Shown: positions 598 through 34,500, numbered from the stretch's first letter. The stretch is 35,878 nt of DNA from a virus (IMGVR_UViG_2703718854_000001), one strand, 5' to 3'. Notes: generated from the letters alone by a model not told the origin. Translations and numbers: made by a program.

Positions 598-1611
598 TTA
601 CTCTACTGTGGACACTGTGTGGACACTCTCGGCCTCAGTACCACCTCTTAGCGGATTAAGAGAAATGGCGTCCTGAAGGTACTCTGGCGCAAAATGAGCG
701 TAAACCATAGTTTGCTCAATCCGCGTGTGACCTAGTATCCGTTGTAGCGTGATAATACTTCCTCCATTAATCATGAAATGAGTGGCAAAGCTGTGCCTTA
801 GTGCATGTGTGGCTTGCCCCATTGGCAAATCCGGTTTTATTGCTTTCATTGTTCGTCTGAAGCGAGGGTAATCAGCATCAGGGAATAAAAAACCTCGTTT
901 GTTATCCGCGATCATTTTGGCAACAGCCTCTGAGATCGGGACGGTGCGTGGTTTGTTTGTTTTCGTTTTAACAAACGTGACGCGGTTATGGATGATATTT
1001 TCTGCTTTCAAACGAGCTGCTTCTCCCCAACGTGCTCCAGTACTCAGGCAAAGAATCGCAATCTTTTTGTTGTCGCCGTCAAGAGCAGCAAGCAGTAAGG
1101 CAATTTCTTCCTGCGTGAGATAGCCTGTGTCTGGTTTTTCCTCCTTAAGCCTTTTTGTCCCTCTGATAGGGTGCTCACCAAAGAATAACTCCGCTTCAAT
1201 CAGGGCTGTAAACATGCCGCTAATACATGTTAAATCACGATTGATACTCGAAGGTTTAATACCCTGACTTCTTCGGGTGGCGCAGTACTGGCTGATAAGC
1301 GATTTCGTAATTTGAAATGCGCATGGGTCATTCGTTATTTTTGTGAAGATTTCAATTTTTCCAAGATTAGATTTCCCATGCTCTTCGTGTTTACCCTTTA
1401 AATCCCACCAGATCTGTGTCAGCTCCGACAGACGTCGCTTGTCTGTTGGTTTTGATAGCCATTCTTTATTGTGGTGGTTGTACAACGTGTATTTCTCGAA
1501 AGCGACAGCTTCGCTTTTCTTATCAAACTTCCTACGGATGCGTTTTCCATTACGTCCAGTAGGGCGGATGTCCACTTCATATCGACCATCATCGAGTTTT
1601 TTGATTGCCAT
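598..1611 (-). CDS. int: Tyrosine integrase, P2 Int-like (337 aa)
   Basis: 337 aa, same length as P2 Int; C-terminal catalytic signature (ARWGEAARL, HALRHSFATHF, MVYAHF); sits beside attL. Confidence 0.93.
   Translation of the reverse strand: MAIKKLDDGRYEVDIRPTGRNGKRIRRKFDKKSEAVAFEKYTLYNHHNKEWLSKPTDKRRLSELTQIWWDLKGKHEEHGKSNLGKIEIFTKITNDPCAFQITKSLISQYCATRRSQGIKPSSINRDLTCISGMFTALIEAELFFGEHPIRGTKRLKEEKPDTGYLTQEEIALLLAALDGDNKKIAILCLSTGARWGEAARLKAENIIHNRVTFVKTKTNKPRTVPISEAVAKMIADNKRGFLFPDADYPRFRRTMKAIKPDLPMGQATHALRHSFATHFMINGGSIITLQRILGHTRIEQTMVYAHFAPEYLQDAISLNPLRGGTEAESVHTVSTVE
607..625. promoter_or_regulatory. Candidate Int arm-type binding sites: two direct TGTGGACAC repeats 10 bp apart
   Basis: Direct repeats at 607-615 and 617-625; a similar TGTGG(T/A)C pair lies on the other arm at 34286-34304. 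Confidence 0.35.
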
Positions 1612-3908: not shown

Positions 3909-4180
3909 GTATTCGTATTGAAATTGGCGAACGTTATGTCGTTACCAGTGACAGCTTTCAGTTTATTCTCCACGAGAAAAAGAGAGCGGAAAGCGGTAAA
4001 AACGCCGGTCAGGAATGGCTGGCGGTGGTTGGTTATTACCCGAAATTAAGCCAGCTCGTTTCCGGCCTGATGCATCACGATATTCTGACCGGAAGCGCAA
4101 AATCTTTTGCCGATTTAAACGTGCAGGTTGAGCAACTCAGCAGGCGTTGTTCAGAGGCTTTTGGCTCATATGGACGTTAA
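3905..4180 (+). CDS. Small early protein at the P2 orf83 position
   Basis: Position immediately upstream of A; overlapping start/stop. Confidence 0.55.
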   Translation: MSIRIEIGERYVVTSDSFQFILHEKKRAESGKNAGQEWLAVVGYYPKLSQLVSGLMHHDILTGSAKSFADLNVQVEQLSRRCSEAFGSYGR

Positions 4181-6458
4181 AGCCTCCGGGCGTTTTGTCC
4201 CTCCGTCAGCATTTGCCGCAGACACCGGTAAGACGTTTACCGGTGCTTATGCATGGAACGCGCCACGCGAGGCTGTCGGGCGCGAAAGACCCCTTACACG
4301 TGACGAGATGCGTCAGGTGCAAGGTGTTTTATCCACGATAAATCGCCTGCCTTATTTTTTGCGCTCGCTGTTTACTTCACGCTATGACTACATCCGGCGC
4401 AATAAAAGCCCGGTGCACGGGTTTTATTTCCTCACATCCACTTTTCAGCGTCGTTTATGGCCGCGTATTGAGCGTGTGAATCAGCGCCATGAAATGAACA
4501 CCGACGCGTCGTTGCTGTTTTTGGCAGAGCGTGACCACTATGCACGCCTGCCGGGAATGAATGACAAGGAGCTGAAAAAGTTTGCCGCCCGTATCTCATC
4601 GCAGCTTTTCATGATGTATGAGGAACTCTGCGATGCCTGGGTGGATGCGCATGGCGAAAAAGAATCGCTGTTTACGGATGAGGCGCAGGCTCACCTGTAT
4701 GGTCATGTTGCTGGCGCTGCACGTGCTTTCAATATTTCCCCTCTCTACTGGAAAAAATACCGTAAAGGGCAGATGACCACGAGGCAGGCATATTCTGCCA
4801 TTGCCCGTCTGTTTAACGATGAGTGGTGGACTCATCAGCTTAAAGGCCAGCGTATGCGTTGGCATGAGGCGTTACTGATTGCTGTCGGGGAGGTAAATAA
4901 AGACCGTTCACCTTATGCCAGTAAACATGCTATTCGTGATGTGCGTGCGCGCCGCCAGGCAAATCTGGAATTTCTTAAATCGTGTGACCTTGAAAACAGG
5001 GAAACCGGCGAACGCATCGACCTTATCAGTAAGGTGATGGGCAGTATTTCTAATCCAGAAATTCGCCGGATGGAGCTGATGAACACCATCGCCGGAATTG
5101 AGCGTTACGCCGCCGCAGAGGGTGATGTGGGGATGTTTATCACGCTGACCGCGCCGTCAAAGTATCACCCGACACGTCAGGTCGGAAAAGGCGAAAGTAA
5201 AACCGTCCAGCTTAATCACGGCTGGAACCATGAGGCATTTAATCCAAAGGATGCGCAGCGTTATCTCTGCCGTATCTGGAGCCTGATGCGCACGGCATTC
5301 AAGGATAATGATTTACAGGCCTACGGTTTGCGTGTCGTTGAGCCACACCACGACGGAACGCCGCACTGGCATATGATGCTTTTTTGTAATCCACGCCAGC
5401 GTAACCAGATTATTGAAATCATGCGTCGCTATGCGCTCAAAGAGGATGGCGACGAAAGAGGAGCCGCGCGAAACCGTTTTCAGGCAAAACACCTTAACCG
5501 GGGCGGTGCTGCGGGGTATATCGCGAAATACATCTCAAAAAACATCGATGGCTATGCACTGGATGGTCAGCTCGATAACGATACCGGCAGACCGCTGAAA
5601 GACACTGCTGCGGCTGTTACCGCATGGGCGTCAACGTGGCGCATCCCACAATTTAAAACGGTTGGTCTGCCGACAATGGGGGCTTACCGTGAACTACGCA
5701 AATTGCCTCGCGGCGTCAGCATTGCTGATGAGTTTGACGAGCGCGTCGAGGCTGCACGCGCCGCCGCAGACAGTGGTGATTTTGCGTTATATATCAGCGC
5801 GCAGGGTGGGGCAAATGTCCCGCGCGATTGTCAGACTGTCAGGGTCGCCCGTAGTCCGTCGGATGAAGTTAACGAGTACGAGGAAGAAGTCGAGAGAGTG
5901 GTCGGCATTTACGCGCCGCATCTCGGCGCGCGTCATATTCATATCACCAGAACGACGGACTGGCGCATTGTGCCGAAAGTTCCGGTCGTTGAGCCTTTGA
6001 CTTTAAAAAGCGGCATCGCCGCGCCTCGGAGTCCTGTCAATAACTGTGGAAAGCTCACCGGCGGTAATACTTCGTTACCGGTTCCCACGCCTTCTGAGCA
6101 CGCCGCAGCAGTGCTTAATCTGGTTGATGACGGTGTTATCGAATGGAATGACCCGGAGGTCGTGAGGACGCTCAGGGGTGCATTAAAACACGGACTGAGA
6201 AGACCAAACCGTCAGCAAAGAAACGGAAGCCCGTTAAAACCACATGAAATTGCGCCATCGGCCAGACTGACCCGGTCGGAACGAATGCAAATCACCCGTA
6301 TCCGCGTTGACCTTGCTCAGAACGGTATCAGGCCGCAGCGATGGGAGCTTGAGGCGCTGGCGCGTGGGGCAACCGTAAATTATGGCGGAAAAAAATTCAC
6401 GTATCTGGTTGCTAATGAGTGGTTCGGGTTTCAAGATGACGTGTCATTTTTCATATAA
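4170..6458 (+). CDS. A: Replication initiation protein A (rolling-circle nickase), about 762 aa
   Basis: Size and position match P2 A (761 aa); HWH and YIAKYISK motifs are typical of rolling-circle initiators; start taken at the in-frame ATG at 4170. Confidence 0.88.
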   Translation: MDVKASGRFVPPSAFAADTGKTFTGAYAWNAPREAVGRERPLTRDEMRQVQGVLSTINRLPYFLRSLFTSRYDYIRRNKSPVHGFYFLTSTFQRRLWPRIERVNQRHEMNTDASLLFLAERDHYARLPGMNDKELKKFAARISSQLFMMYEELCDAWVDAHGEKESLFTDEAQAHLYGHVAGAARAFNISPLYWKKYRKGQMTTRQAYSAIARLFNDEWWTHQLKGQRMRWHEALLIAVGEVNKDRSPYASKHAIRDVRARRQANLEFLKSCDLENRETGERIDLISKVMGSISNPEIRRMELMNTIAGIERYAAAEGDVGMFITLTAPSKYHPTRQVGKGESKTVQLNHGWNHEAFNPKDAQRYLCRIWSLMRTAFKDNDLQAYGLRVVEPHHDGTPHWHMMLFCNPRQRNQIIEIMRRYALKEDGDERGAARNRFQAKHLNRGGAAGYIAKYISKNIDGYALDGQLDNDTGRPLKDTAAAVTAWASTWRIPQFKTVGLPTMGAYRELRKLPRGVSIADEFDERVEAARAAADSGDFALYISAQGGANVPRDCQTVRVARSPSDEVNEYEEEVERVVGIYAPHLGARHIHITRTTDWRIVPKVPVVEPLTLKSGIAAPRSPVNNCGKLTGGNTSLPVPTPSEHAAAVLNLVDDGVIEWNDPEVVRTLRGALKHGLRRPNRQQRNGSPLKPHEIAPSARLTRSERMQITRIRVDLAQNGIRPQRWELEALARGATVNYGGKKFTYLVANEWFGFQDDVSFFI

Positions 6459-6563: not shown

Positions 6564-6619
6564 TAGAAAGATCAAATACAACGGTTTACTTGTTATGATG
6601 CAATTATTGGTTAGTTAGT

Positions 6620-6870
6620 GAGATACATCGCCATCAATTGGGTATTTTTTACCCGTGGAAAGTTAACACTTTCTACCGTTTACCCCGCGCAACGCCCCTG
6701 CCAGCGACAAGAGTCACAGGACCAGGTGGTATGGCGTATGGGAATTCGAACCCTTTGGGCGACAAAGGGTTCGTGGAGCAGGGAGCTAGTGCTGTTCAAT
6801 CTCATCCTTATGAGGGCGAACCATAGTGTTGGAGCAGACATACCGTTTGCACACTATGGGCATAAGGAGC
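6620..6870 (+). ncRNA. Candidate structured non-coding RNA or leader upstream of the RT operon (possible retron msr-msd)
   Basis: Perfect 11-bp hairpin at 6747-6773; 9-bp stem 6821-6829/6851-6859 nested in an 8-bp stem 6805-6812/6861-6868 that pairs with the downstream Shine-Dalgarno; the overlapping ORFs have no ribosome-binding site and look non-coding. Confidence 0.3.
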
Positions 6871-6875
6871 AAATC

Positions 6876-7031
6876 ATGAAGAATGATAAATTAACCAACG
6901 AACAGCAGGCGCAGAACAAGTCAAACCTGAAAAAGAGGGCTGGTTATGCTTGGGAATTATTCAAATGGGGTATTAGACTGTTTGATTTAGTCACTCGAGC
7001 ACTGGACTACTTAGAAGGGGGTGGTGAGTAA
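6876..7031 (+). CDS. Small protein (51 aa), first ORF of the RT operon
   Basis: ATG at 6876 with AAGGAG 6 nt upstream; hydrophilic N-terminus and amphipathic C-terminus; no recognisable domain. Confidence 0.35.
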   Translation: MKNDKLTNEQQAQNKSNLKKRAGYAWELFKWGIRLFDLVTRALDYLEGGGE

Positions 7032-7067
7032 TGCGTCCTCCCTAGTTTCAATAGCATGGAGTTGCCT

Positions 7068-7376
7068 ATGTTACATAAAGCCCTTCGTTTAATAAGGCAA
7101 TACCATAAAGAATCAATAGTTGAGTTATCTTCATCTTTAGGTATTCCAAAAGACAAAATAGTATCGCTTGAAAGCGGAGTTTGGTCACCGTCGATTGAAG
7201 TCTTAGAGCGTTACGCCTCCCATTTCGACATACCAGTATCCTCTTTAGTATTCTTTTCGGAATCATTAGGCACGCAAGGCCGTTTGTCTAAGCGATTGCG
7301 TTTAAATTTAGCCGGTAAAGTTCTGGATGTTCTGGAGTGGGTAAGTAATAAAAATGAAAAAACGGAAAAAGCTTAA
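7068..7376 (+). CDS. XRE-family HTH protein (about 102 aa) immediately upstream of, and overlapping, the RT gene
   Basis: Cro/C1-like HTH (SIVELSSSLGIPKDKIVSLESG); GGAG 6 nt upstream of the ATG at 7068 (alternative ATG at 7056); 3' end overlaps the RT start by 23 nt. Confidence 0.65.
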   Translation: MLHKALRLIRQYHKESIVELSSSLGIPKDKIVSLESGVWSPSIEVLERYASHFDIPVSSLVFFSESLGTQGRLSKRLRLNLAGKVLDVLEWVSNKNEKTEKA

Positions 7377-8304
7377 GGTTAATACTAAAAATAAATCTTA
7401 TGACATAATGGATTCGCCATTTTACAAACTCAAAAGTAAAAGAAAACTGGCGAATTTGCTTTGTGTTAGTCTTGAAGAATTATACTCTTTGAGAAAAGAT
7501 GAAGGAAACTATTCCGTTTTTGAGCAACTTTCTAAAAAAGGAAAAGCACGAAAAATACAAAAGCCTTTAGAAAAACTAGAACTTGTACATACACGAATTG
7601 CAAGTTTGTTATCACGGATTGCTTTGCCAGAATATCTGCACTCGGGGAAGAAGAAGTGCTCTAATGTGACGAATGCTAAAGCTCATCTTAATAATGAAAA
7701 GATGATGACAACAGATATTAAAGCTTTTTTTCCATCAACTACAAGAGGGATGATATTTTCTTTTTTCTTTTCGATGATGAAAATGTCATCTGATGTTGCT
7801 GATGTTTTGTCCCACATATGTACTTGTCATGACCGATTACCAACAGGTAGTCGCATCAGTATGCCGTTGGCATATTTTGCAAATTCAAGAATGTTTGGTG
7901 AAATATATCAACTTTGCCAAAAGTTACGAGTTAACATGACTGTTTATGTTGATGATCTCACTTTTTCAGGTGGTAACGTAAATCGATTGTTTTGCGCTGT
8001 AATTCGTAAGATCGTTAATAAGCATGGACATGTTATACACCCAACGAAAACAAAATTATATGCCAGAGATAAGCCTAAGTTGGTAACTGGAGTTATTGTA
8101 TTCGGTAATGCTTTAAAAGTTAGGAATGAGCAGCATTTTTTGATGGCTAGGGAAATAGATTATTGGAAAATAATTAAAGACGCCGAAAATGCGAGAGAAA
8201 CAATCATTGCCAAAAAGCTCTTTGGCCGTTTGCATTCAATGGGAGTGATTGAGCAACGTTACAAATCGAAGGTGCTTACTTTAAAGGCTAATACTGCAAA
8301 TTAA
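7354..8304 (+). CDS. Reverse transcriptase, retron-type (316 aa)
   Basis: YVDD active-site motif; NAKAH (NAxxH), DIKAFFPS, LPTGSxxSxxLA and a VTG motif (KLVTGVIVF) align block by block with the retron Ec86 RT recalled from memory; 316 aa is retron-sized; AT-rich cargo. Confidence 0.8.
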   Translation: MKKRKKLKVNTKNKSYDIMDSPFYKLKSKRKLANLLCVSLEELYSLRKDEGNYSVFEQLSKKGKARKIQKPLEKLELVHTRIASLLSRIALPEYLHSGKKKCSNVTNAKAHLNNEKMMTTDIKAFFPSTTRGMIFSFFFSMMKMSSDVADVLSHICTCHDRLPTGSRISMPLAYFANSRMFGEIYQLCQKLRVNMTVYVDDLTFSGGNVNRLFCAVIRKIVNKHGHVIHPTKTKLYARDKPKLVTGVIVFGNALKVRNEQHFLMAREIDYWKIIKDAENARETIIAKKLFGRLHSMGVIEQRYKSKVLTLKANTAN

Positions 8305-8427
8305 CATATTGAATGTATTGCATAAAAGCATCAATAATTAAAATGACTTGGCGTTAGTAACGCCGCAAGTGCAGGAATTTACTTTCGATGCAGGCGGCGT
8401 TGATTAGAAACCTCAGAAAGTAGTTAG

Positions 8428-8865
8428 CTATGAAGCTGACGTCACAAAATTAACGCCAAGAGTCAACAGGTTTGTCACTGCTCCAGCAATTACACCTGGA
8501 GTTCCGTCTTTTACTGCACTGATAATTTTATCACCCATCGTTTCATTACCGCCAAGTGCTTCGGGTTTTTTGTTGAGCACCGCGAGTGCTTTCTCGGTCA
8601 GGCGCACATCATGAAAACCGGTCTGATGGTCTGTTCCGTACAGAATATAGCCGTTTTCGCTTAGGAAAGTGAATGTGCCATCAACCACACTACGCAACTG
8701 ATTCAGTGCTTTCATTTCTGGTGAGTTAAGTTGGTCAAAGTAGTCATCAGGTAACGCGGCGTTAAATTTTTTGTAGGTGATGACTTGTGGTACAGGAAAG
8801 TTATCCCATAGCACCGCAAAGATTTCTGCCGTCTGTTGGTTGAATAATTCGAGATTTTTGGACAT
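8428..8865 (-). CDS. Hypothetical protein (145 aa) with a predicted C-terminal transmembrane anchor
   Basis: Good Shine-Dalgarno (GAAAGGGAA); C-terminal hydrophobic stretch GVIAGAVTNLLTLGVNFV; convergent with the RT gene. Confidence 0.55.
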   Translation of the reverse strand: MSKNLELFNQQTAEIFAVLWDNFPVPQVITYKKFNAALPDDYFDQLNSPEMKALNQLRSVVDGTFTFLSENGYILYGTDHQTGFHDVRLTEKALAVLNKKPEALGGNETMGDKIISAVKDGTPGVIAGAVTNLLTLGVNFVTSAS

Positions 8866-9196
8866 GCATAGTTCCCTTTCATCAATTAAAGACCCTTATG
8901 CCGACTGGGCAAAGAGGCTAACTGTAATGGCCTCAAATAACGACCTGAGCTCTCGCGAGGTGGATAGTTACACTGAAAAAATGGTTGAACAAGCCAGTAA
9001 AGATGAGCTTATGGTCGTTATAAAATACCTGTTAAATCACATCAGAATGAATAAATAAAATGATCTATATCAAGATGTTATCTCACATTTATGAAAGTCC
9101 GTGGACAACGATTTTTCTGCTAATTGTTGTCAGTACGTGCCTCAACAGTGTGATTGGTGCATTGCGCGGCCAGTGACAACTATAAAAATTGATCAG

Positions 9197-9224
9197 AACC
9201 GGCATCATGAATGCCGGTTTTTTT
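9197..9224 (+). terminator. Rho-independent terminator (9-bp GC-rich stem, T-run)
   Basis: aaccggcat-catga-atgccggtt followed by tttttt. Confidence 0.5.
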
Positions 9225-9382
9225 GTGCTTTTTCTGTGATATCCCCGTTTTTATCTGTGCATGCAATATGTGCATGGTTTTGCATGTGCCGGAGTTACAT
9301 GTTCTGGCCGTGCGTCCGCCAAGACTGGCGTGGCTCAAAAGCGGTATTGCAACTGCATTAAAACCGCCCCATGAAGCGGGCG

Positions 9383-9401
9383 GGCGAGGCGGGGAAAGCA
9401 C
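9383..9401. other. cos site: P2-type 19-nt cohesive-end sequence GGCGAGGCGGGGAAAGCAC
   Basis: Exact match to the P2 cohesive-end sequence as I recall it; lies between the old/tin-type region and Q, as in P2. Confidence 0.55.
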
Positions 9402-9545
9402 TGCGCGCAGCCCGTCAAGAATAAAAAACTCTCTTGCAGGTAGAAAACATTCTGTTAACATTTGTCTGGATGAAGTTTAAGTTAGAAATTTATGTTAATG
9501 AACTGATTGATACTTATGTTTTGTCAATAATTTAGGAATGTTAAG

Positions 9546-10682
9546 ATGACAAGCTATGTTACATGGGCAAATAAAGGTGGAATAGGTAAATCAACATTAT
9601 CTTTCCAATTGGCGTTAAAATACGCGAGATTAAACACGAATAAAAAAGTAATCATAATAGATATGAGCCCTCAGTGTGATGTCTCTAGAATGTTATTGGG
9701 GGGAGGGCATTTTAACGGTGAGCAAAAGATCTTGGATAGAATGACCTCTAATCCAAGGTTGACAATTTACCGGTATCTTGAGGCCTGTGTTAATGATGTT
9801 CCTTCTGGGAGGGGATGGCCTGATTCATTATCATACTTAATTGAACCTAATTCTTTTCGAGACGAAAACGCAGAAAAATTGCCTGATAATATTAGTATGG
9901 TCTGTGGAGATTTCGACTTAGAGAGGGTTACTCATAGTTTAGATAATTTGCCACAACCTCAACCAAGAGGCGGGCGTGTTCCGTCGGGTGCTCATTACTC
10001 AGCATATTTATTGCCACGCACTTTTCTACGGAAAATGGTGGAGGACTTTGAGCGCGAATACAGGGATGTGACAATTTTTATTGATACGGATCCATATTAT
10101 TCGGTAGTAACAACACATCTGGGGCTTCTGGCTGCAGACAGGTTGATTTCGGCATACTCTCCTTCATCTCAAGCAAGCCAGTATGCAGTATATCGTAGCT
10201 TAGAGTTTCTATACGATCCTAATTATGGACTGGTGCAAGAGGTTAATACACAGAGAGCAATATATGGTACCCCTTGGTTTGATAGTTTAAATAATATAAT
10301 TACAACACCGAATATATCTGTTGCAAATCTTTATATGGTAGTAAGTAACATGAATACGCCTCAGGCTGGAAGAGGACAACCTCCATACAGCCAACCCCAA
10401 AAACTACATAGACAATCGCAACAAGAAGTTATATCTAGAATTAATGACACATTAAGTAGTTTGGGGATCGCGCATGATTATGTTCATGACTATTTATGGG
10501 ATCTCAAGAGATTAGGTTTGATTTGTGATTATAATGGTTTTGATTTAGCAACAATTCAATTAGGGGAAAATTATGCGGAACCAAGTGATGATGGTAATTA
10601 TTATGTAAATACTACAGGTGGAACACCGATCCAATTATCATCCTATAATGCTAGGATCGAAACTGTTACATCAAAACTATAA
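9546..10682 (+). CDS. ParA/MinD-family P-loop ATPase with an unrecognised C-terminal extension of about 130 aa (378 aa)
   Basis: Deviant Walker A KGGIGKST; A' (IIIDMSPQ) and Walker B-like (IFIDTDP) motifs; AT-rich; no parB-like partner nearby. Confidence 0.7.
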   Translation: MTSYVTWANKGGIGKSTLSFQLALKYARLNTNKKVIIIDMSPQCDVSRMLLGGGHFNGEQKILDRMTSNPRLTIYRYLEACVNDVPSGRGWPDSLSYLIEPNSFRDENAEKLPDNISMVCGDFDLERVTHSLDNLPQPQPRGGRVPSGAHYSAYLLPRTFLRKMVEDFEREYRDVTIFIDTDPYYSVVTTHLGLLAADRLISAYSPSSQASQYAVYRSLEFLYDPNYGLVQEVNTQRAIYGTPWFDSLNNIITTPNISVANLYMVVSNMNTPQAGRGQPPYSQPQKLHRQSQQEVISRINDTLSSLGIAHDYVHDYLWDLKRLGLICDYNGFDLATIQLGENYAEPSDDGNYYVNTTGGTPIQLSSYNARIETVTSKL

Positions 10683-10688
10683 GAACTA

Positions 10689-10710
10689 GGGGAGCAAATG
10701 CTCCCTTTCT
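10689..10710 (+). terminator. Candidate rho-independent terminator after the ParA-like gene
   Basis: gggagc-aaat-gctccc hairpin followed by tttct. Confidence 0.4.
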
Positions 10711-10754
10711 ATATATGGGTTATTAATTACCCGCTTATATAAATATTGAAGAAA

Positions 10755-11774
10755 CTATAGGGTGTATTGTCTGAATTTTATTACATTCTGACCGAGCCAG
10801 CCGTTTATTTCCCGAATCCTGTCCTGTAACGGGATAAGCTCATTGCGGACAAAGACCTTTGCCACTTTCTCAATATCACCCAGCGCCCCGACGTTCTCCG
10901 GCTTGCCGCCCATCAACTGAAAGGGGATGCGGTGCGCGTCCAGCAGGTCTGCGGCGCTGGCTTTTTTGATATTAAAAAAATCATCCTTCGTTGCCACTTC
11001 ACTGAGCGGGATAATTTTAATGCCGTCGGCTTTCCCTTGTGGGGCATAGAGAAACAGGTTTTTAAAGTTGTTGCGGCCTTTCGACTTCACCATGTTTTCG
11101 CGGAGCATTTCGATATCGTTGCGATCCTGCACGGCATCGGTGACGTACATGATGTATCCGGCATGTGCGCCGTTTTCGTAATACTTGCGGCGGAACAGCG
11201 TGGCCGACTCATTCAGCCAGGCAGAGTTAAGGGCGCTGAGATATTCCGGCAGGCCGTACAGCTCCTGATTAATATCCGGCTCCAGCAGGTGAAACACGGA
11301 GCCGGGCGCGAAAGGTGTCGGCTCATGGAAGGACGGCACCCACCAGTAAACATCCTCTTCCACGCCACGGCGGGTATATTTTGCCGGTGAGGTTTCCAGT
11401 CTGATGACCTTACCGGTGGTGCTGTATCGCTTTTCCAGAAACGCATTACCGAACACCAGAAAATCCAGCACAAAGCGGCTGAAATCCTGCTGGGAAAGCC
11501 ACGGATGCGGGATAAATGTCGAGGCCAGAATATTACGTTTGACGTAAATCGGTGAGCTGTGATGCACGGCAGCACGCAGACTTTTTGCCAGACCGGTAAA
11601 GCTGACCGGTGGCTCATACCATCTGCCGTTACTGATGCACTCGACGTAATCCAGAATGTCACGACGGTCGAGTACCGGCACCGGCTCACCAAAGGTGAAT
11701 GCCTCCATTTTCGGGGCGCTGGCGGTCATTTTTTTTGCCGCAGGTTGCGGTGTTTTCCCTTTTTTCTTACTCAT
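10755..11774 (-). CDS. Q: Portal protein
   Basis: 339 aa at the position of P2 Q (344 aa); stop/start overlap with P. Confidence 0.88.
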   Translation of the reverse strand: MSKKKGKTPQPAAKKMTASAPKMEAFTFGEPVPVLDRRDILDYVECISNGRWYEPPVSFTGLAKSLRAAVHHSSPIYVKRNILASTFIPHPWLSQQDFSRFVLDFLVFGNAFLEKRYSTTGKVIRLETSPAKYTRRGVEEDVYWWVPSFHEPTPFAPGSVFHLLEPDINQELYGLPEYLSALNSAWLNESATLFRRKYYENGAHAGYIMYVTDAVQDRNDIEMLRENMVKSKGRNNFKNLFLYAPQGKADGIKIIPLSEVATKDDFFNIKKASAADLLDAHRIPFQLMGGKPENVGALGDIEKVAKVFVRNELIPLQDRIREINGWLGQNVIKFRQYTL

Positions 11775-13546
11775 CAGTAAAACTCCAGAATGGTGGATGT
11801 CAGCGGGGTGCTGATACCGGCGGTGAGTGGCTCATTTAACAGGGCGTGCATGGTCGCCCAGGCGAGGTCGGCGTGGCTGGCTTCCTCGCTGCGGCTGGCC
11901 TCATAGGTGGCGCTGCGTCCGCTGCTGGTCATGGTCTTGCGGATAGCCATGAACGAGCTGGTGATGTCGGTGGCGCTGACGTCATATTCCAGACAGCCAC
12001 GGCGGATAACGTCTTTTGCCTTGAGCACCATTGCGGTTTTCATTTCCGGCGTGTAGCGGATATCGCGCGCGGCGGGATAGAACGAGCGCACGAGCTGGAA
12101 CACGCCGACACCGAGGCCGGTGGCATCAATCCCGATGTATTCAACGTTATATTTTTCGGTGAGTTTGCGGATGGATTCCGCCTGGGTGGCAAAGTCCATG
12201 CCTTTCCACTGGTGACGCTCAAGTATTCTGAATTTGCCACCGGCCACCACCGGCGGTGCCAGCACCACGCATCCGGCGCTGTCGCCACGGTGTGACGGGT
12301 CGTAACCAATCCATACCGGGCGGGAGCCGAACGGATTGGCGGCAAACGGCGCATAGTCTTCCCATTCTTCCAGCGTGTCGACCATGCAGCGTTGCAGCTC
12401 CTCGAACGGGAACACCGACGCCTTGTCGTCAACAAATTCACACATGAACAGGTTTTTAAAATCGTCGGCGCTGTTTTCACGTTTGAGCTGCTCAATGTCG
12501 AACAGCGTGCAGCCACCTTTCAGGGCGTCCTCAATGGTGACAATCTGCCGCCACTGGCCGTCCGCACAGAGAAGCCCACCGGCAAGGGCGTTATGACTGA
12601 CGTCGATTTCCACGCGTTCGGCGGCGCTGGCGCGTCCCCGGTTGAACAGTTCACCTGACCAGAACGGGTAGGCGTCGTGCGCCAGCGTGGACGGGGTGGA
12701 GAAATAGGTCGAACGCAGGTGACTCTGTGAGGCCATACCTGATGCCACCTTACGCAGTACCTGAAAATTCGGGATCCAGAAAATCTCGTCGACGTACAGG
12801 TCGCCGTTATGGCTCTGTGCGGTGTTGGAGTTGGTGCCGAGAAAAATTAGTTTTGCGCCGTTATTGCCCAGGACAATCGGGTCACCGGTCAGGTCAACGT
12901 CAACCAGACGGGCAAAGGCGATGATGTATTCGCGGAACACATACGCCTGCGTTTTACTGGCCGACAGAAAAATCTGGTTATGGCCGGTTTTCAGGGCGCG
13001 CAGCAGCGCCTCGCGGGAAAAATAAAACGTTGCGCCAATCTGGCGGGATTTCAGTATATCGCGGATGCGGTGCTCAAGCCCGGCGCGATACCAGTGCAAC
13101 TGATAGTCGAAAGACTGCTCAAAGAAAATCTGCTCCAGCTTTTCGATGGCTTCGTCACTGAAAAAATTCTTTTTCGGTTTGCGACGCCCGCCTTTGTTGC
13201 GGTTAGCGACGTTCGGATTAAGGTCTGCCTCGTTGCCGGTCTGACTGTAGCGGTTGACCCGCGCCAGTCGTTCAATCTGGCGTCCCAGCAGGTCAATTTC
13301 CTTGAAGTCACCGCCGGTTTTCTGCGGTTTGATGATGAGCTGGGTCAGCCGCGCTTCCAGGCTCATTTCGACACGGCTGATGGGGGCAACGCTGTCCCAG
13401 CCGTCGCGCTGTTTCCAGCTCTGTACCGTCGGGCGTTTCATCTGCAACATGGCGGCAATCTGCGGCACGGAAAACCCCTGCCAGTACAGCAGCGCCGCCT
13501 GCCGACGCGGGTCGTGTAAAAGAGTGGTGTCTGTGGTGATGGTCAT
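11774..13546 (-). CDS. P: Terminase large (ATPase) subunit, 590 aa
   Basis: Length equals P2 P when started at the ATG with a GAGG Shine-Dalgarno; divergent from O. Confidence 0.88.
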   Translation of the reverse strand: MTITTDTTLLHDPRRQAALLYWQGFSVPQIAAMLQMKRPTVQSWKQRDGWDSVAPISRVEMSLEARLTQLIIKPQKTGGDFKEIDLLGRQIERLARVNRYSQTGNEADLNPNVANRNKGGRRKPKKNFFSDEAIEKLEQIFFEQSFDYQLHWYRAGLEHRIRDILKSRQIGATFYFSREALLRALKTGHNQIFLSASKTQAYVFREYIIAFARLVDVDLTGDPIVLGNNGAKLIFLGTNSNTAQSHNGDLYVDEIFWIPNFQVLRKVASGMASQSHLRSTYFSTPSTLAHDAYPFWSGELFNRGRASAAERVEIDVSHNALAGGLLCADGQWRQIVTIEDALKGGCTLFDIEQLKRENSADDFKNLFMCEFVDDKASVFPFEELQRCMVDTLEEWEDYAPFAANPFGSRPVWIGYDPSHRGDSAGCVVLAPPVVAGGKFRILERHQWKGMDFATQAESIRKLTEKYNVEYIGIDATGLGVGVFQLVRSFYPAARDIRYTPEMKTAMVLKAKDVIRRGCLEYDVSATDITSSFMAIRKTMTSSGRSATYEASRSEEASHADLAWATMHALLNEPLTAGISTPLTSTILEFY

Positions 13547-13719
13547 GAATACCTCGCCGTGATGAATACACGGCAAGGCTACTGAGTCGCGCCCCGCGAT
13601 TCGCTAAGGTGCTGTTGTGTCAGTGATAAGCCATCCGGGACTGATGGCGGAGGATGCGCATCGTCGGGAAACTGATGCCGACATGTGACTCCTCTAATCA
13701 CTATTCAGGACTCCTGACA

Positions 13720-20124: not shown

Positions 20125-20868
20125 TTATCTGGTTAAATAAGTGAGCTCACTCTCTTTAGGTATTAGCTGAGTGTCTCCTCCCCATTCGTTCATGATGTTT
20201 TTTCTCGCATTCCAGTATTCTTGGTAAGTATCTTGATGAACAGTGTAGATACTTGCTAAAAGCCAGTGTTGATACTTAAGAGTCGTGTATTGGTATTCTT
20301 CTATTATCGGTAAAATGAATAAGTTTTTTTGCTTTAGTGAGATTAAATATTCTTTTGTTTGTTTGGTGGTTCTGTCATTGTTTAAGATTCTTTCAATCTT
20401 AAATGAAAAGCCGTGCATGTTTATATTTCTTTGGAGGTGCATGAATGATGATATTGATGGGGCGATCATGTTTTGATGCGTCAGGATGTTTCTTAAATCC
20501 TCCATTAATTTTATTACTGGATTATTTCGGAATTCATGATTGATGAATGCCTCTGATTTGATTTTAATGTCGGCAATATTTAATGCTTTTGTTTTAAGTA
20601 GGTTGCGCGTTGAATCTCTAAATGATAATGCTGAAGATATATAATTGAAAAGGTGTCTTGATATGTTTAAATGTTCTTTTTTAAATTTGTCTCTGTTAAA
20701 TGAATGACGGGAAACAATGTCAGGGGAGTTGAATTTGCTTAATTCATGTTGGACAACTTCGTAATTGGCAATATGCATATGTCCAAGTAAATTGGTGTCG
20801 GAGATTTTTAAATACTCTTGATGGGCGATGGTGTCTTTTTGATTTTCCCAGATTTGATATTTATCCAT
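20125..20868 (-). CDS. AT-rich hypothetical protein (247 aa) on the opposite strand between S and V (P2 orf30 position)
   Basis: Long ORF with much lower GC than the backbone, antisense to the late operons; no domain recognised. Confidence 0.6.
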   Translation of the reverse strand: MDKYQIWENQKDTIAHQEYLKISDTNLLGHMHIANYEVVQHELSKFNSPDIVSRHSFNRDKFKKEHLNISRHLFNYISSALSFRDSTRNLLKTKALNIADIKIKSEAFINHEFRNNPVIKLMEDLRNILTHQNMIAPSISSFMHLQRNINMHGFSFKIERILNNDRTTKQTKEYLISLKQKNLFILPIIEEYQYTTLKYQHWLLASIYTVHQDTYQEYWNARKNIMNEWGGDTQLIPKESELTYLTR

Positions 20869-26127: not shown

Positions 26128-27354
26128 ATGTTACAGTTCAGCTTTGTATCAAATGACGTTGTTATGACTTACGACGGTGACAGCGGAGAACAAATAATTT
26201 GGGTTTGGGAGAGTTTAAATAAATTTCAAACAGTATGCATTTCACGAATTTTTAACTTTCAACTCCAGGATTTGAGAAACCCACCGTCAACCGTTCAGGA
26301 TTTTAATGATTACGAATATTCCTTTAATTTTGGCACGCTTAATAATGAATACATAACAGTTCCGGGACGGATTCTAAGCATTAATCGAGATGTCCTTATA
26401 CATAAGTCCATCAAGCTTGAAAGGAAAGTATTTGCGTCAGAACGCAACGTCTCCATTTTTGGTCGGCTTTCAAAACTACTCGATCACACTAATCCCATCA
26501 TCATCGGAGGAGATAAGCCGGAAGCTATACCAAAAAGCGTATTCCAGGAGTTGCAAAGTAAATTCCCCAACACAGGGGAACTGGATCGCTATGCTAATGC
26601 AAGGGTTCACGCTATTCTCGCAGGTTATCTTGATGGTATGAAAGATGCTCGCGAACGGTATGAACATTACCTAAACAGAAAAACAGTGATCAGAAAAACC
26701 GACAAACTGGGTTTAGAAGTTTTAAATAAGCTCGAAATTGAGAAATATACACTCATAAGAGACATTATCCAGGATGCGTTGAATAACAAAACTAACTTGT
26801 CTGAAGATGACTGGCAGAGCCTGATGATACCCTTCATCACATTACTTTTTCCAAAATATATCAAGGTCCTCGAGAAGGTTAAAATTTTCGACTATTACTC
26901 TAATCCTTCGGCTAAAACAAATCGGTTTATAGACATTGCACTGGTGGATGCAAACGGCAACCTTGATATCATCGAAGTCAAAAAGCCGTTTGATGATAAG
27001 ATCCTTCGCAAGACGCCCTATCGCGATAACTATATTCCTACATCAGAACTTAGCGGCGGTATTATGCAGGCTGAAAAGTATATTTTTCATTTATCTAAAT
27101 GGGGTGTTAAGGGTGAAAAAGAGCTTACGAATGCCTACAAGAATTCTCTGCCAGCGGGAATGTGTATTCGTATATCTAACCCAAAAGCCATCATCATTGT
27201 CGGGCGCGATCAGATAGCGAACGGTAACATGACCGACGGTCAGTTGCTTGATTTTGAGATAATCAAACGTAAGTACGCCAACATGATAGACATATTGACG
27301 TACGACGACCTGTTGCGTCGACTTAATAATACGATTGAAGCATTGAAAGGTTGA
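26128..27354 (+). CDS. Cargo protein at the Z/fun position (408 aa) with a C-terminal PD-(D/E)xK-like nuclease motif; Shedu (DUF4263)-like candidate
   Basis: IDIALVD...DIIEVKKP...QAEKY pattern in the C-terminal third; N-terminal 250 aa unrecognised; AT-rich; sits in the G-FI variable locus. Confidence 0.5.
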   Translation: MLQFSFVSNDVVMTYDGDSGEQIIWVWESLNKFQTVCISRIFNFQLQDLRNPPSTVQDFNDYEYSFNFGTLNNEYITVPGRILSINRDVLIHKSIKLERKVFASERNVSIFGRLSKLLDHTNPIIIGGDKPEAIPKSVFQELQSKFPNTGELDRYANARVHAILAGYLDGMKDARERYEHYLNRKTVIRKTDKLGLEVLNKLEIEKYTLIRDIIQDALNNKTNLSEDDWQSLMIPFITLLFPKYIKVLEKVKIFDYYSNPSAKTNRFIDIALVDANGNLDIIEVKKPFDDKILRKTPYRDNYIPTSELSGGIMQAEKYIFHLSKWGVKGEKELTNAYKNSLPAGMCIRISNPKAIIIVGRDQIANGNMTDGQLLDFEIIKRKYANMIDILTYDDLLRRLNNTIEALKG

Positions 27355-34344: not shown

Positions 34345-34372
34345 TAAAAAATAAGCCCGTGTAAGGGAGATT
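34345..34372. repeat. attR core, 28-bp direct repeat identical to attL; it is the 3' terminator end of cyaR
   Basis: Exact repeat of 491-518. Confidence 0.8.
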
Positions 34373-34432
34373 ACACAGGCTAAGGAGGTGGTTCCTGGTA
34401 CAGCTAGCATTTTATGGGTTATGTTTTTCAGC
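34346..34432 (-). ncRNA. cyaR: CyaR (RyeE) Hfq-dependent small RNA
   Basis: The reverse complement of 34346-34432 reads GCTGAAAAACATAACCCATAAAATGCTAGCTGTACCAGGAACCACCTCCTTAGCCTGTGTAATCTCCCTTACACGGGCTTATTTTTT, which matches the E. coli CyaR sequence as I recall it, including the terminator. Confidence 0.8.
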
Positions 34433-34500
34433 GAAACGGATGATAACCTTAATAAATGCAGCTGTATGTGATCGGTTTCTAAGAATTTTCCATCCGGGAA
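34433..34500 (-). promoter_or_regulatory. cyaR promoter region with a candidate CRP half-site
   Basis: On the minus strand, a TATCAT -10-like element lies just upstream of the CyaR 5' end, with TCACA-containing CRP-like sequence further upstream; CyaR is known to be CRP-activated. Confidence 0.3.

Follow-up and report, generated by a model that had tools for sequence, protein, structure and literature searches.

The viral DNA stretch IMGVR_UViG_2703718854_000001 was analyzed over its whole length of 35,878 nucleotides (hereafter the window), which represents a P2-like prophage by gene content. Between the cohesive-end site (cos) and the portal gene Q, the window encodes an ATPase of the ParA/MinD fold, and this gene is the subject of the present study. 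A preliminary description, made from the sequence alone, had placed an orphan ParA/MinD-like ATPase between cos and Q, and both landmarks were recovered: the cos sequence was matched exactly, and Q lies on the minus strand, so that the ParA-like gene is situated between the two and converges on Q (Table 1). Protein comparisons suggested that the gene may represent a distinct and divergent subfamily of single-gene, ParA-like defense ATPases of the GiPD474 type, carried as cos-linked cargo by P2- and P4-type elements.

Homology to a reference P2-like phage was limited in this region to the cos core (9348-9408), which is 97% identical to that of phage NC_041848 (blastn), and resumed at position 10780, within the 3'-terminal part of Q. 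Over its final ~10 codons Q has diverged, reading GQNVIKFRQYTL in the window (10755-10785) and GQEVIRFKNYSLDTDNG in the reference L011 (1724-1765), and the allele of the window is shorter by five codons. As this 3' end is a diverged allele, the right junction of the cassette is placed inside it. The ParA-like gene has a G+C content of 38.3% (29% at third codon positions) against ~55% in the backbone, in agreement with its earlier characterization as AT-rich and convergent with Q. The gene had also been credited with a candidate promoter and terminator of its own. A G+C-rich hairpin lies between the two convergent genes, a possible two-way terminator that was flagged on the minus strand in a scan, the plus-strand T-run being weak; the promoter was not found, as described below.

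In the prophage of E. coli NC22 (L001), the segment equivalent to 9348-11200, which comprises cos, the ParA-like gene, and Q, was 99% identical to that of the window, with different cargo to the left of cos. An ImmA/IrrE gene and a hypothetical gene are found there in the place where the window carries a type VI retron. Since the segment is the same with the retron replaced, the ParA-like gene is independent of the retron reverse transcriptase, and a link between these neighbors was rejected.

Conservation of the ATPase

The deviant Walker A, Walker A', and Walker B motifs noted in the preliminary description were all present, and their key residues were invariant among 36 aligned family members. 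These included W7, N9, K10, G11, G12, G14, K15, S16, and T17 in and around Walker A, D39, S41, P42, Q43, C44, and D45 in Walker A', and D180, T181, and D182 in Walker B, the strand of which spans residues 175-180 in the predicted model. D39, P42, and Q43 are common to the GiPD474 family as well. A further conserved loop at residues 136-152 is specific to the subfamily: its residues R141, G143, G148, and S152 were invariant in the same alignment, and residues 138-147 are missing in a sister family of ~352 amino acids.

A total of 96 relatives were found in the protein database, nearly all of them 377-378 amino acids long and 43-87% identical, in Enterobacterales, Vibrionaceae, Aeromonas, Pseudomonas, Burkholderia, an alphaproteobacterium, and Myxococcota. 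The length of 377-378 residues was constant from the gamma- to the deltaproteobacteria. Their alignment had a mean column identity of 62% with ~100 invariant positions, including the signature and P-loop lysines and the Walker A' and B aspartates, and it contained the family-specific motifs GGGHxxGE, CGDFDLER, PQPxxRGGRxPxGxxYS, YSPSSQASQYA, and RLGLxCDYNG. In a hidden Markov model (HMM) search of 1.84 billion cluster representatives, the 378-residue family formed one 50%-identity cluster at 610 bits and the next match scored 131 bits. Below this cluster lay a broad set of ParA-like proteins of 340-370 residues, giving 981 matches in total at E<1e-3. No informative domain fusions and no extra Pfam domains were found among the longer relatives. 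Existing models cover the protein in part: Pfam AAA_31 (4e-10) and CbiA span residues 8-206 only, all matches to these two, to PHROG 164 (ParA-like), and to the NCBIfam ParA models are confined to the N-terminal 45-208 residues, and neither PADLOC nor NCBIfam holds a specific family for it.

Among the enterobacterial orthologues, the proportions of non-synonymous (pN) and synonymous (pS) differences were 0.10-0.16 and 0.78-0.88, respectively. Synonymous sites were saturated, so that the synonymous divergence dS was not computable and pN and pS were used instead. The resulting pN/pS of ~0.11-0.20 points to strong purifying selection on the gene. The gene was AT-rich in every host, even in P. 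aeruginosa (48% G+C).

Absence of partner genes and centromeres

The earlier observation that no ParB partner or centromere repeats lie near the gene was upheld and extended. The cassette contained no ParB-like gene, no small partner ORF (open reading frame of at least 20 amino acids with partner character), and no repeat array, and a search of 8300-10800 for centromere-like repeats returned only short two-copy chance repeats. Across ~17 related contexts, neither ParB/parS nor any conserved neighbor or conserved small ORF was found, and no conserved partner emerged when all neighbors within 6 kb of 100 loci were clustered together with the small flanking ORFs. The 45 upstream same-strand genes that were compared were all unrelated. 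The autoregulatory helix-turn-helix (HTH) domain at the N-terminus of type Ia proteins is not present, with Walker A starting at residue 9 and strand 1 formed by residues 2-8. DNA homology between loci ended at the ORF boundaries, and no non-coding flank was conserved. Because homology stops at the ORF ends, no partner was found, pN is far below pS, and the gene is AT-rich everywhere, it is best described from these comparisons as a selected, horizontally moving, single-gene unit.

Predicted fold of the protein

The C-terminal part had been described as a novel extension of ~130 residues, and it was left unassigned because the Pfam domains span residues 8-206 only. This view was not retained. 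In the predicted model, the C-terminal third contains core strands 261-269 and 313-318 as well as helix 359-376 (predicted local distance difference test, pLDDT, ~90), so that the region is modeled as part of the ParA fold and not as a separate extension; it is also homologous across the wider family. The whole protein is accordingly modeled as a single ParA fold, in which ~120 residues in excess of canonical ParA are predicted to be insertions spread along the chain.

The best structural matches of the model were true partition ATPases, to which the identity is only 12-18%. Relative to the canonical type Ib ParA/Soj/McdA/MinD proteins (PDB 8ray, 6noo, 2bek, and 1g3r), the protein is ~120 residues longer and 12-18% identical, and it lacks a partner gene of the ParB, McdB, or MinE type, a centromere, an N-terminal HTH domain, and an evident C-terminal membrane-targeting helix. 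DIP2308 of Corynebacterium diphtheriae (PDB 3pg5) was the best match in both the PDB sequence search and Foldseek. This 361-residue protein is likewise a long ParA-like protein with an extreme N-terminal Walker A and a 'DCDPQCN' switch; its sequence similarity covers ~50 residues only (E 8e-6), and as an uncharacterized structural-genomics protein it added no functional information. A fold search of BFVD returned a single weak ParA match, and hhalign against one approximate Soj sequence aligned the P-loop region only and was not informative. Searches of Pfam, NCBIfam, and PDB sequences returned no strong homology to a characterized housekeeping ATPase, a possibility that the preliminary description had raised.

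Homology to the defense protein GiPD474

GiPD474 (STM474_RS13505) is a single-gene defense protein of Gifsy-1 in Salmonella Typhimurium 4/74 (Bosma, Noireaux & Bowden, Appl Environ Microbiol 2025, PMC12724215). It was described as a ParA/MinD/Soj-like ATPase with an "unknown domain", encoded in the Gifsy-1 immunity region. Its deletion restores the plating of phage FO1. GiPD474 alone also restricts FO1, and whether expressed in Salmonella or in E. coli it lowers the plating of T4 and Alf5 by ~5 logs, with no effect on T7, SP6, LPST153, Jbel, VpaE1, and S16. A post-adsorption step was suggested, and the mechanism was not established (PMC12724215). The sequence of GiPD474 was identified here as a protein of 361 amino acids (P0262), to whose gene both lambda-Red arms of Table S2 of that study map, one exactly and one with a single mismatch. 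Additionally, P0262 matches GiPD474 in its GGVGKT at residues 29-34, its gene length of 1086 bp, and the CI-type repressor gene just upstream. The primer arms had no match in the E. coli or phage collections, and the gene was located via the protein database.

The window protein shares 26% identity with GiPD474 over 306 amino acids (BLASTP, E 8e-23). A profile of the 378-residue family was aligned with that of GiPD474 and the sister family at a probability of 100% (hhalign, E 5.9e-46) over 340 columns, pairing residues 1-378 with 16-361. Judged by these alignments, the window protein is a distant full-length homologue of GiPD474. The identity of 26% falls under the criterion for homologues used by the authors of GiPD474 (at least 70% identity and at least 70% coverage, PMC12724215), and the protein is therefore assigned to a distinct subfamily rather than considered a GiPD474 orthologue. 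Between the two families, identity was 27% over residues 1-223 and 12% over residues 224-378, and C-terminal conservation within families was 40-50%.

Both proteins are encoded by single prophage-borne genes without a partner, have a ParA/MinD/Soj-like fold with a region that Pfam could not assign, and belong to the AT-rich accessory cargo of temperate elements. They have in common the motifs W-x-N-K-G-G-x-G-K, PQ-x-[DN]-x-S, LGG, P-x-N, and GD-x-x-L, as well as N268. In contrast, the window family has loops of its own at residues 107-110, 138-147, 225-232, 284-287, and 343-350, lacks the 18-residue N-terminal leader of GiPD474, and forms a tight cluster apart from the rest of the superfamily, as seen in the drop from 610 to 131 bits. 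The niches also differ: GiPD474 is encoded in the lambdoid immunity region after cI, whereas the window gene occupies the P2 cos-Q junction, and its relatives the P4 hotspot, with no repressor/Cro/CII module next to the window gene. Sister-family genes were found directly after cI, at the position of lambda rex, in Klebsiella phage ST11-VIM1phi8.2, Pseudomonas phage phi297, and Salmonella phage S.Inf 5-2, and one close relative of the window protein (L013) follows an S24 CI-like gene.

The suggestion of anti-phage defense or exclusion made in the preliminary description thus gained support from the apparent full-length homology to a validated defense protein. Its overall view of an orphan ParA-like protein was sustained in part, with a role in defense now probable and without the novel C-terminal domain, and its statement that the protein is not part of any named system is outdated by the catalogue entry described below and by GiPD474 itself.

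Table 1. Positions of the ParA-like gene, its motifs, and the surrounding features in the window.
Feature	Position	Strand	Remarks
Integrase	598-1611		
gpA	4128-6458		
P2-type cos cohesive-end sequence, GGCGAGGCGGGGAAAGCAC	9383-9401	+	Exact match; 0.03 chance matches expected
Replaced or inserted cassette	9409-10779		1371 bp against ~200 bp in reference P2-like phage (blastn, L011 and L001)
Candidate ribosome-binding site AGGA	9534-9537	+	8 nt 5' of ATG; putative, read from sequence
Orphan ParA/MinD-fold ATPase gene	9546-10682	+	378 amino acids, ATG start; putative GiPD474-superfamily subfamily
Deviant Walker A, N9-KGGIGKST-17	9570-9596	+	Signature Lys10, P-loop Lys15; read from sequence
Walker A' / switch I, V35-IIIDMSPQCD-45	9648-9680	+	
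Subfamily-specific conserved loop, PQPQPRGGRVPSGAHYS	9951-10001	+	Residues 136-152
Walker B strand, TIFIDTD (F178-I-D180-T-D182)	10068-10091	+	Residues 175-182
C-terminal third	10215-10679	+	Residues 224-378; modeled as part of ParA fold; most divergent part between subfamilies
G+C-rich hairpin, GGGAGCAAATGCTCCC	10690-10705		Between the convergent ParA-like gene and Q
Portal gene Q	10755-11774	-	phrog_68 portal, 5e-174; context gene
Terminase P	11774-13576		Structural genes further downstream

Distribution among mobile elements

The gene is rare in E. coli, where it was found in two of 5426 complete genomes, both copies being 99.6% identical. An earlier record exists in Table S5B of Rousset et al. 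2022, where the single-gene 'system 160: AAA_31/CbiA' is recorded 11 times for the P2 gpA-gpQ hotspot of E. coli (Cell Host Microbe, PMC9122126). System 160 is the same protein as that of the window with one residue different; its entry carries no comment and no family link, and it is not named among the systems cloned and tested (PMC9122126). Two other items of that work were considered and set aside. The plasmid-partitioning system that it notes for one quarter of P2 phages is StbA/Plasmid_stab_B and unrelated to the window protein, and a different ParA-like protein of 367 amino acids from P2 hotspots (systems 110 and 129 of PMC9122126, with a RelA_SpoT or DUF5855 gene downstream) resembles it only around the P-loop.

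P4-like satellites of Serratia, Pantoea, Morganella, and Klebsiella carried the closest relatives (78-87% amino acid identity) at a site flanked by Ogr/Delta(-Psu) and the integrase, an interval that is the cos-adjacent P4 hotspot. The ParA-like gene is usually the sole cargo gene of this interval, and it is the sole or last one in Serratia, Pantoea, and Morganella. In the Klebsiella satellite (L092, 6540-7973), a gene for a DUF8370 protein, which matches the PADLOC candidate PDC-M36A (1.5e-46), ends 28 bp before the ParA-like gene; its product could be a separate neighbor or an optional partner in some satellites, and pairs of 'hypothetical + AAA_31' are also listed in the P4 table of Rousset et al. 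(PMC9122126). In Serratia, a cos-like sequence, oriented as in the window, was located ~360 bp upstream of the gene, which fits the idea that satellites and helper phages exchange cos-linked cargo. Similarly, a cos-like site and the ParA-like gene persist in a heavily deleted P2-like remnant of Enterobacter roggenkampii (L103, 5811-8305), of which only a gpS fragment is otherwise left between host genes.

Other carriers varied in type. In P. aeruginosa, Burkholderia, and Cronobacter, the gene is found at the edge of integrase-bearing islands with a small serine recombinase nearby, in a variable arrangement; the Burkholderia gene adjoins AbiE, and a Grimontia gene lies at the end of an inovirus-like prophage. 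The ligA-adjacent island of P. aeruginosa was not among the core defense hotspots. Linkage to a resolvase or an invertible promoter was considered and rejected, as no convincing flanking inverted repeats were found and the arrangement varies.

No member of the 378-residue family was found among 72,556 plasmids. A scan of 100,044 species genomes returned close relatives at six loci and the sister family at many loci. This sister family has more than 2,000 proteins at E<1e-20, shares 30-36% identity with the window protein over residues 1-223, and is flanked by unrelated, often housekeeping genes. Its 352-residue members were also observed as the only cargo of ~5-kb ColE1-type mobilizable plasmids of E. 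coli, Salmonella, E. albertii, and Klebsiella, for example at 1269-2327 of the E. coli plasmid pSUH-5 (L113, 5057 bp). A plasmid of this size and type is an odd place for a partition ATPase, and the occurrence fits a self-contained function.

Other cargo of the prophage

The retron reverse transcriptase (7354-8304, PADLOC RT_VI 3.9e-105) is encoded to the side of cos that faces gpA. Two small ORFs that have no Pfam matches precede it, at 6618-7031 and at 7056-7376, the latter overlapping the start of the reverse transcriptase, and no msr/msd RNA was detected at the Rfam gathering threshold in 6618-8304. Two uncharacterized genes conserved in the P2 hotspot follow, phrog_2266 (8428-8865, minus strand) and phrog_2454 (the C-terminal 64 amino acids of 8777-9058, plus strand), with an ORF overlap at 8777-8865. 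An AT-rich island among the tail genes at ~25-27.5 kb (G+C 0.38-0.48), probably the Z/fun hotspot, includes a gene (26128-27354) for a 408-residue protein with a Shedu SduA_C domain (3e-33), which is a second defense locus in this prophage. A 247-residue ORF without a Pfam match (20125-20868, minus strand, G+C 0.34-0.37) lies on the opposite strand between late genes and is likely another moron. The right end of the prophage adjoins the CyaR/RyeE small RNA (34349-34434, minus strand, Rfam 100.7 bits), followed by a host peptidase U32 gene, and the prophage seems to sit at the cyaR locus.

Candidate functions of the ParA-like gene

The interpretation started from features regarded as established, namely the fold, the intact motifs, the orphan status, the location on mobile elements and in hotspots, the purifying selection, and the full-length homology to a validated defense protein. 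Together they suggest a subfamily of GiPD474-type defense ATPases with putative anti-phage activity, a reading that we consider about evenly balanced between right and wrong. The setting in defense hotspots agrees with it, as illustrated by the retron reverse transcriptase across cos, PDC-M36A in Klebsiella, AbiE in Burkholderia, and system 160, and so do the position of sister-family genes after cI and the absence of the 378-residue family from the 72,556 plasmids. Acting without a partner protein, the ATPase would then keep out particular incoming phages at a stage later than adsorption and in this way protect the lysogen, and hence the prophage. The protein would presumably be made in the lysogen and form an ATP-sandwich dimer via its signature lysine, as in other deviant-Walker-A ATPases, so as to act as a nucleotide-dependent switch. 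The subfamily loops and the divergent C-terminal third may provide a surface that recognizes a phage-derived target, either protein or DNA, and engagement of this target would block phage development, through sequestration or mislocalization of the target or through arrest of the cell.

Several observations weigh against this reading. A consensus scan of 9402-9545 found no sigma-70-like promoter, and promoter-like matches in the wider region were no more frequent than expected by chance. PADLOC gave the window protein no match, and no recognizable effector domain was found in it. The experimental evidence concerns GiPD474, to which the identity is only 26%, far under the 70% of its authors, and function could differ because of this low overall identity and the ~12% in the C-terminal third. 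Outside the Enterobacterales, the neighborhoods are a mix of mobile-element, defense, and housekeeping genes. Two relatives, a copy of Enterobacter ludwigii and one of a gammaproteobacterial metagenome-assembled genome (L015, 10001-11136; L016, 10001-10735), are pseudogenized, being split or truncated (frameshift following residue ~49; stop at 244), and some copies are therefore decaying. Soj of B. subtilis uses arginine 189 for non-specific DNA binding; no conserved counterpart follows strand 261-269 of the window protein, and nucleoid binding is therefore not assured. The mechanistic steps themselves follow an analogy with ParA/MinD ATPases in general.

A more specific version of the defense reading, which we hold only tentatively and as unlikely, invokes spatial control, in place of enzymatic killing, by an effector-less immune ATPase. 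An ATP-locked dimer of the ParA type would capture a component of the incoming phage, either a factor for replication or assembly or DNA ends (cos with terminase, for instance), and tether or mislocalize it. The poorly conserved C-terminal third would serve as an exchangeable specificity module, and the subfamily of P2 and P4 would be adapted to conflicts that involve cos-packaging phages, their satellites, and competitors. If true, it would also explain the constant travel of the gene next to cos.

The main rival to the defense reading is interference with partition, in which an orphan ParA would act on competing ParABS replicons, such as conjugative plasmids or phage-plasmids (P1, N15, and SSU5), by titrating or mis-regulating their ParB/parS complexes or nucleoid gradient, and would destabilize them to the benefit of the resident element. 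A precedent is ParI (PP3700), an orphan ParA of a genomic island of P. putida KT2440, which, according to the account of Miyakoshi et al. 2012 given in PMC9178275, destabilizes IncP-7 plasmids in a manner dependent on its ATPase motif. In that account, ParI resembles the window protein: it is an orphan ATPase with a deviant Walker A, its gene of ~1.1 kb is carried by an integrated mobile element, and it acts alone in replicon conflict, its target being IncP-7 plasmid partition and not phages. The window protein is likewise an orphan ParA-fold ATPase of integrated elements without ParB/parS, with true partition ATPases as its best structural matches. However, GiPD474, its closest characterized relative, acts on lytic phages without a partition system, and the window family has conserved surface motifs of its own at 12-18% identity to partition ParAs. 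The N-terminus of ParI, the part available for comparison (MSPLAAA and KGGVGKS, primer-derived, PMC9178275), is unlike MTSYVTWANKGGIGKS of the window and MxSYVxWANKGG of the family. On balance, partition interference appears doubtful.

Another accessory role, such as modulation of a host process under ParA/MinD-type control (division site, DnaA, or flagellar number) or counter-defense for the carrier phage or satellite, was judged improbable. ParA/MinD ATPases have many non-partition roles (PMC9178275), hotspots also hold non-defense cargo such as the cytolethal distending toxin, and in many phyla single genes of the sister family are also seen beside housekeeping genes. Against such a role, no conserved link to any host operon was found, the only tested relative is a defense protein, and the patchy and rare occurrence (two of 5426 complete E. 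coli genomes) of a gene that is AT-rich everywhere is the pattern of mobile conflict cargo.

Self-maintenance, in which the ATPase would position or partition the extrachromosomal form of its element (the P4 plasmid state or excised circles) via a host or element adaptor, seems quite improbable. P4 can persist as a plasmid, several carriers are P4-like satellites, and the ParA fold with intact motifs, together with the small serine recombinase (resolvase) near the gene in Pseudomonas, Burkholderia, and Cronobacter, would suit this role. However, no adaptor gene, centromere repeats, or conserved non-coding flank was found, and the carriers (P2, P4-like satellites, islands, and an inovirus-like prophage) are unrelated and therefore have no common element-encoded adaptor. 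The family is also absent from all 72,556 plasmids, and for these three reasons self-maintenance is disfavored. In addition, the gene is kept in the degraded Enterobacter remnant, which is unable to replicate, and the P2 'partition system' of Rousset et al. is the unrelated StbA/Plasmid_stab_B. Finally, a passenger gene without function or the decaying relic of an earlier partition module, as the orphan status, the rarity in E. coli, and the two frameshifted or truncated relatives might suggest, is highly improbable given the constant 377-378 residues, the 62% mean column identity with ~100 invariant positions, and the contradicting pN/pS of ~0.11-0.20 at saturated synonymous sites.

Implications for ParA-fold defense proteins

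Defense by a single protein of the ParA/MinD fold was shown only in late 2025, for GiPD474. The present analysis places GiPD474 in a large superfamily that includes a sharply separate and highly conserved 378-residue subfamily of the P2/P4 cos-adjacent hotspot and other element edges. It offers a functional hypothesis for an unannotated entry of the P2-hotspot catalogue and a concrete case of cos-linked cargo exchange between helper phages and satellites. Should the gene not be anti-phage, it would instead join ParI as a second case of orphan ParA use in replicon conflict. The two subfamilies form a divergent pair, with similar N-terminal ATPase cores and different C-terminal thirds, which is useful for mapping specificity and mechanism, and the interest of the finding lies mainly in the help it may give in understanding how a protein of the ParA fold with no effector can stop a phage.

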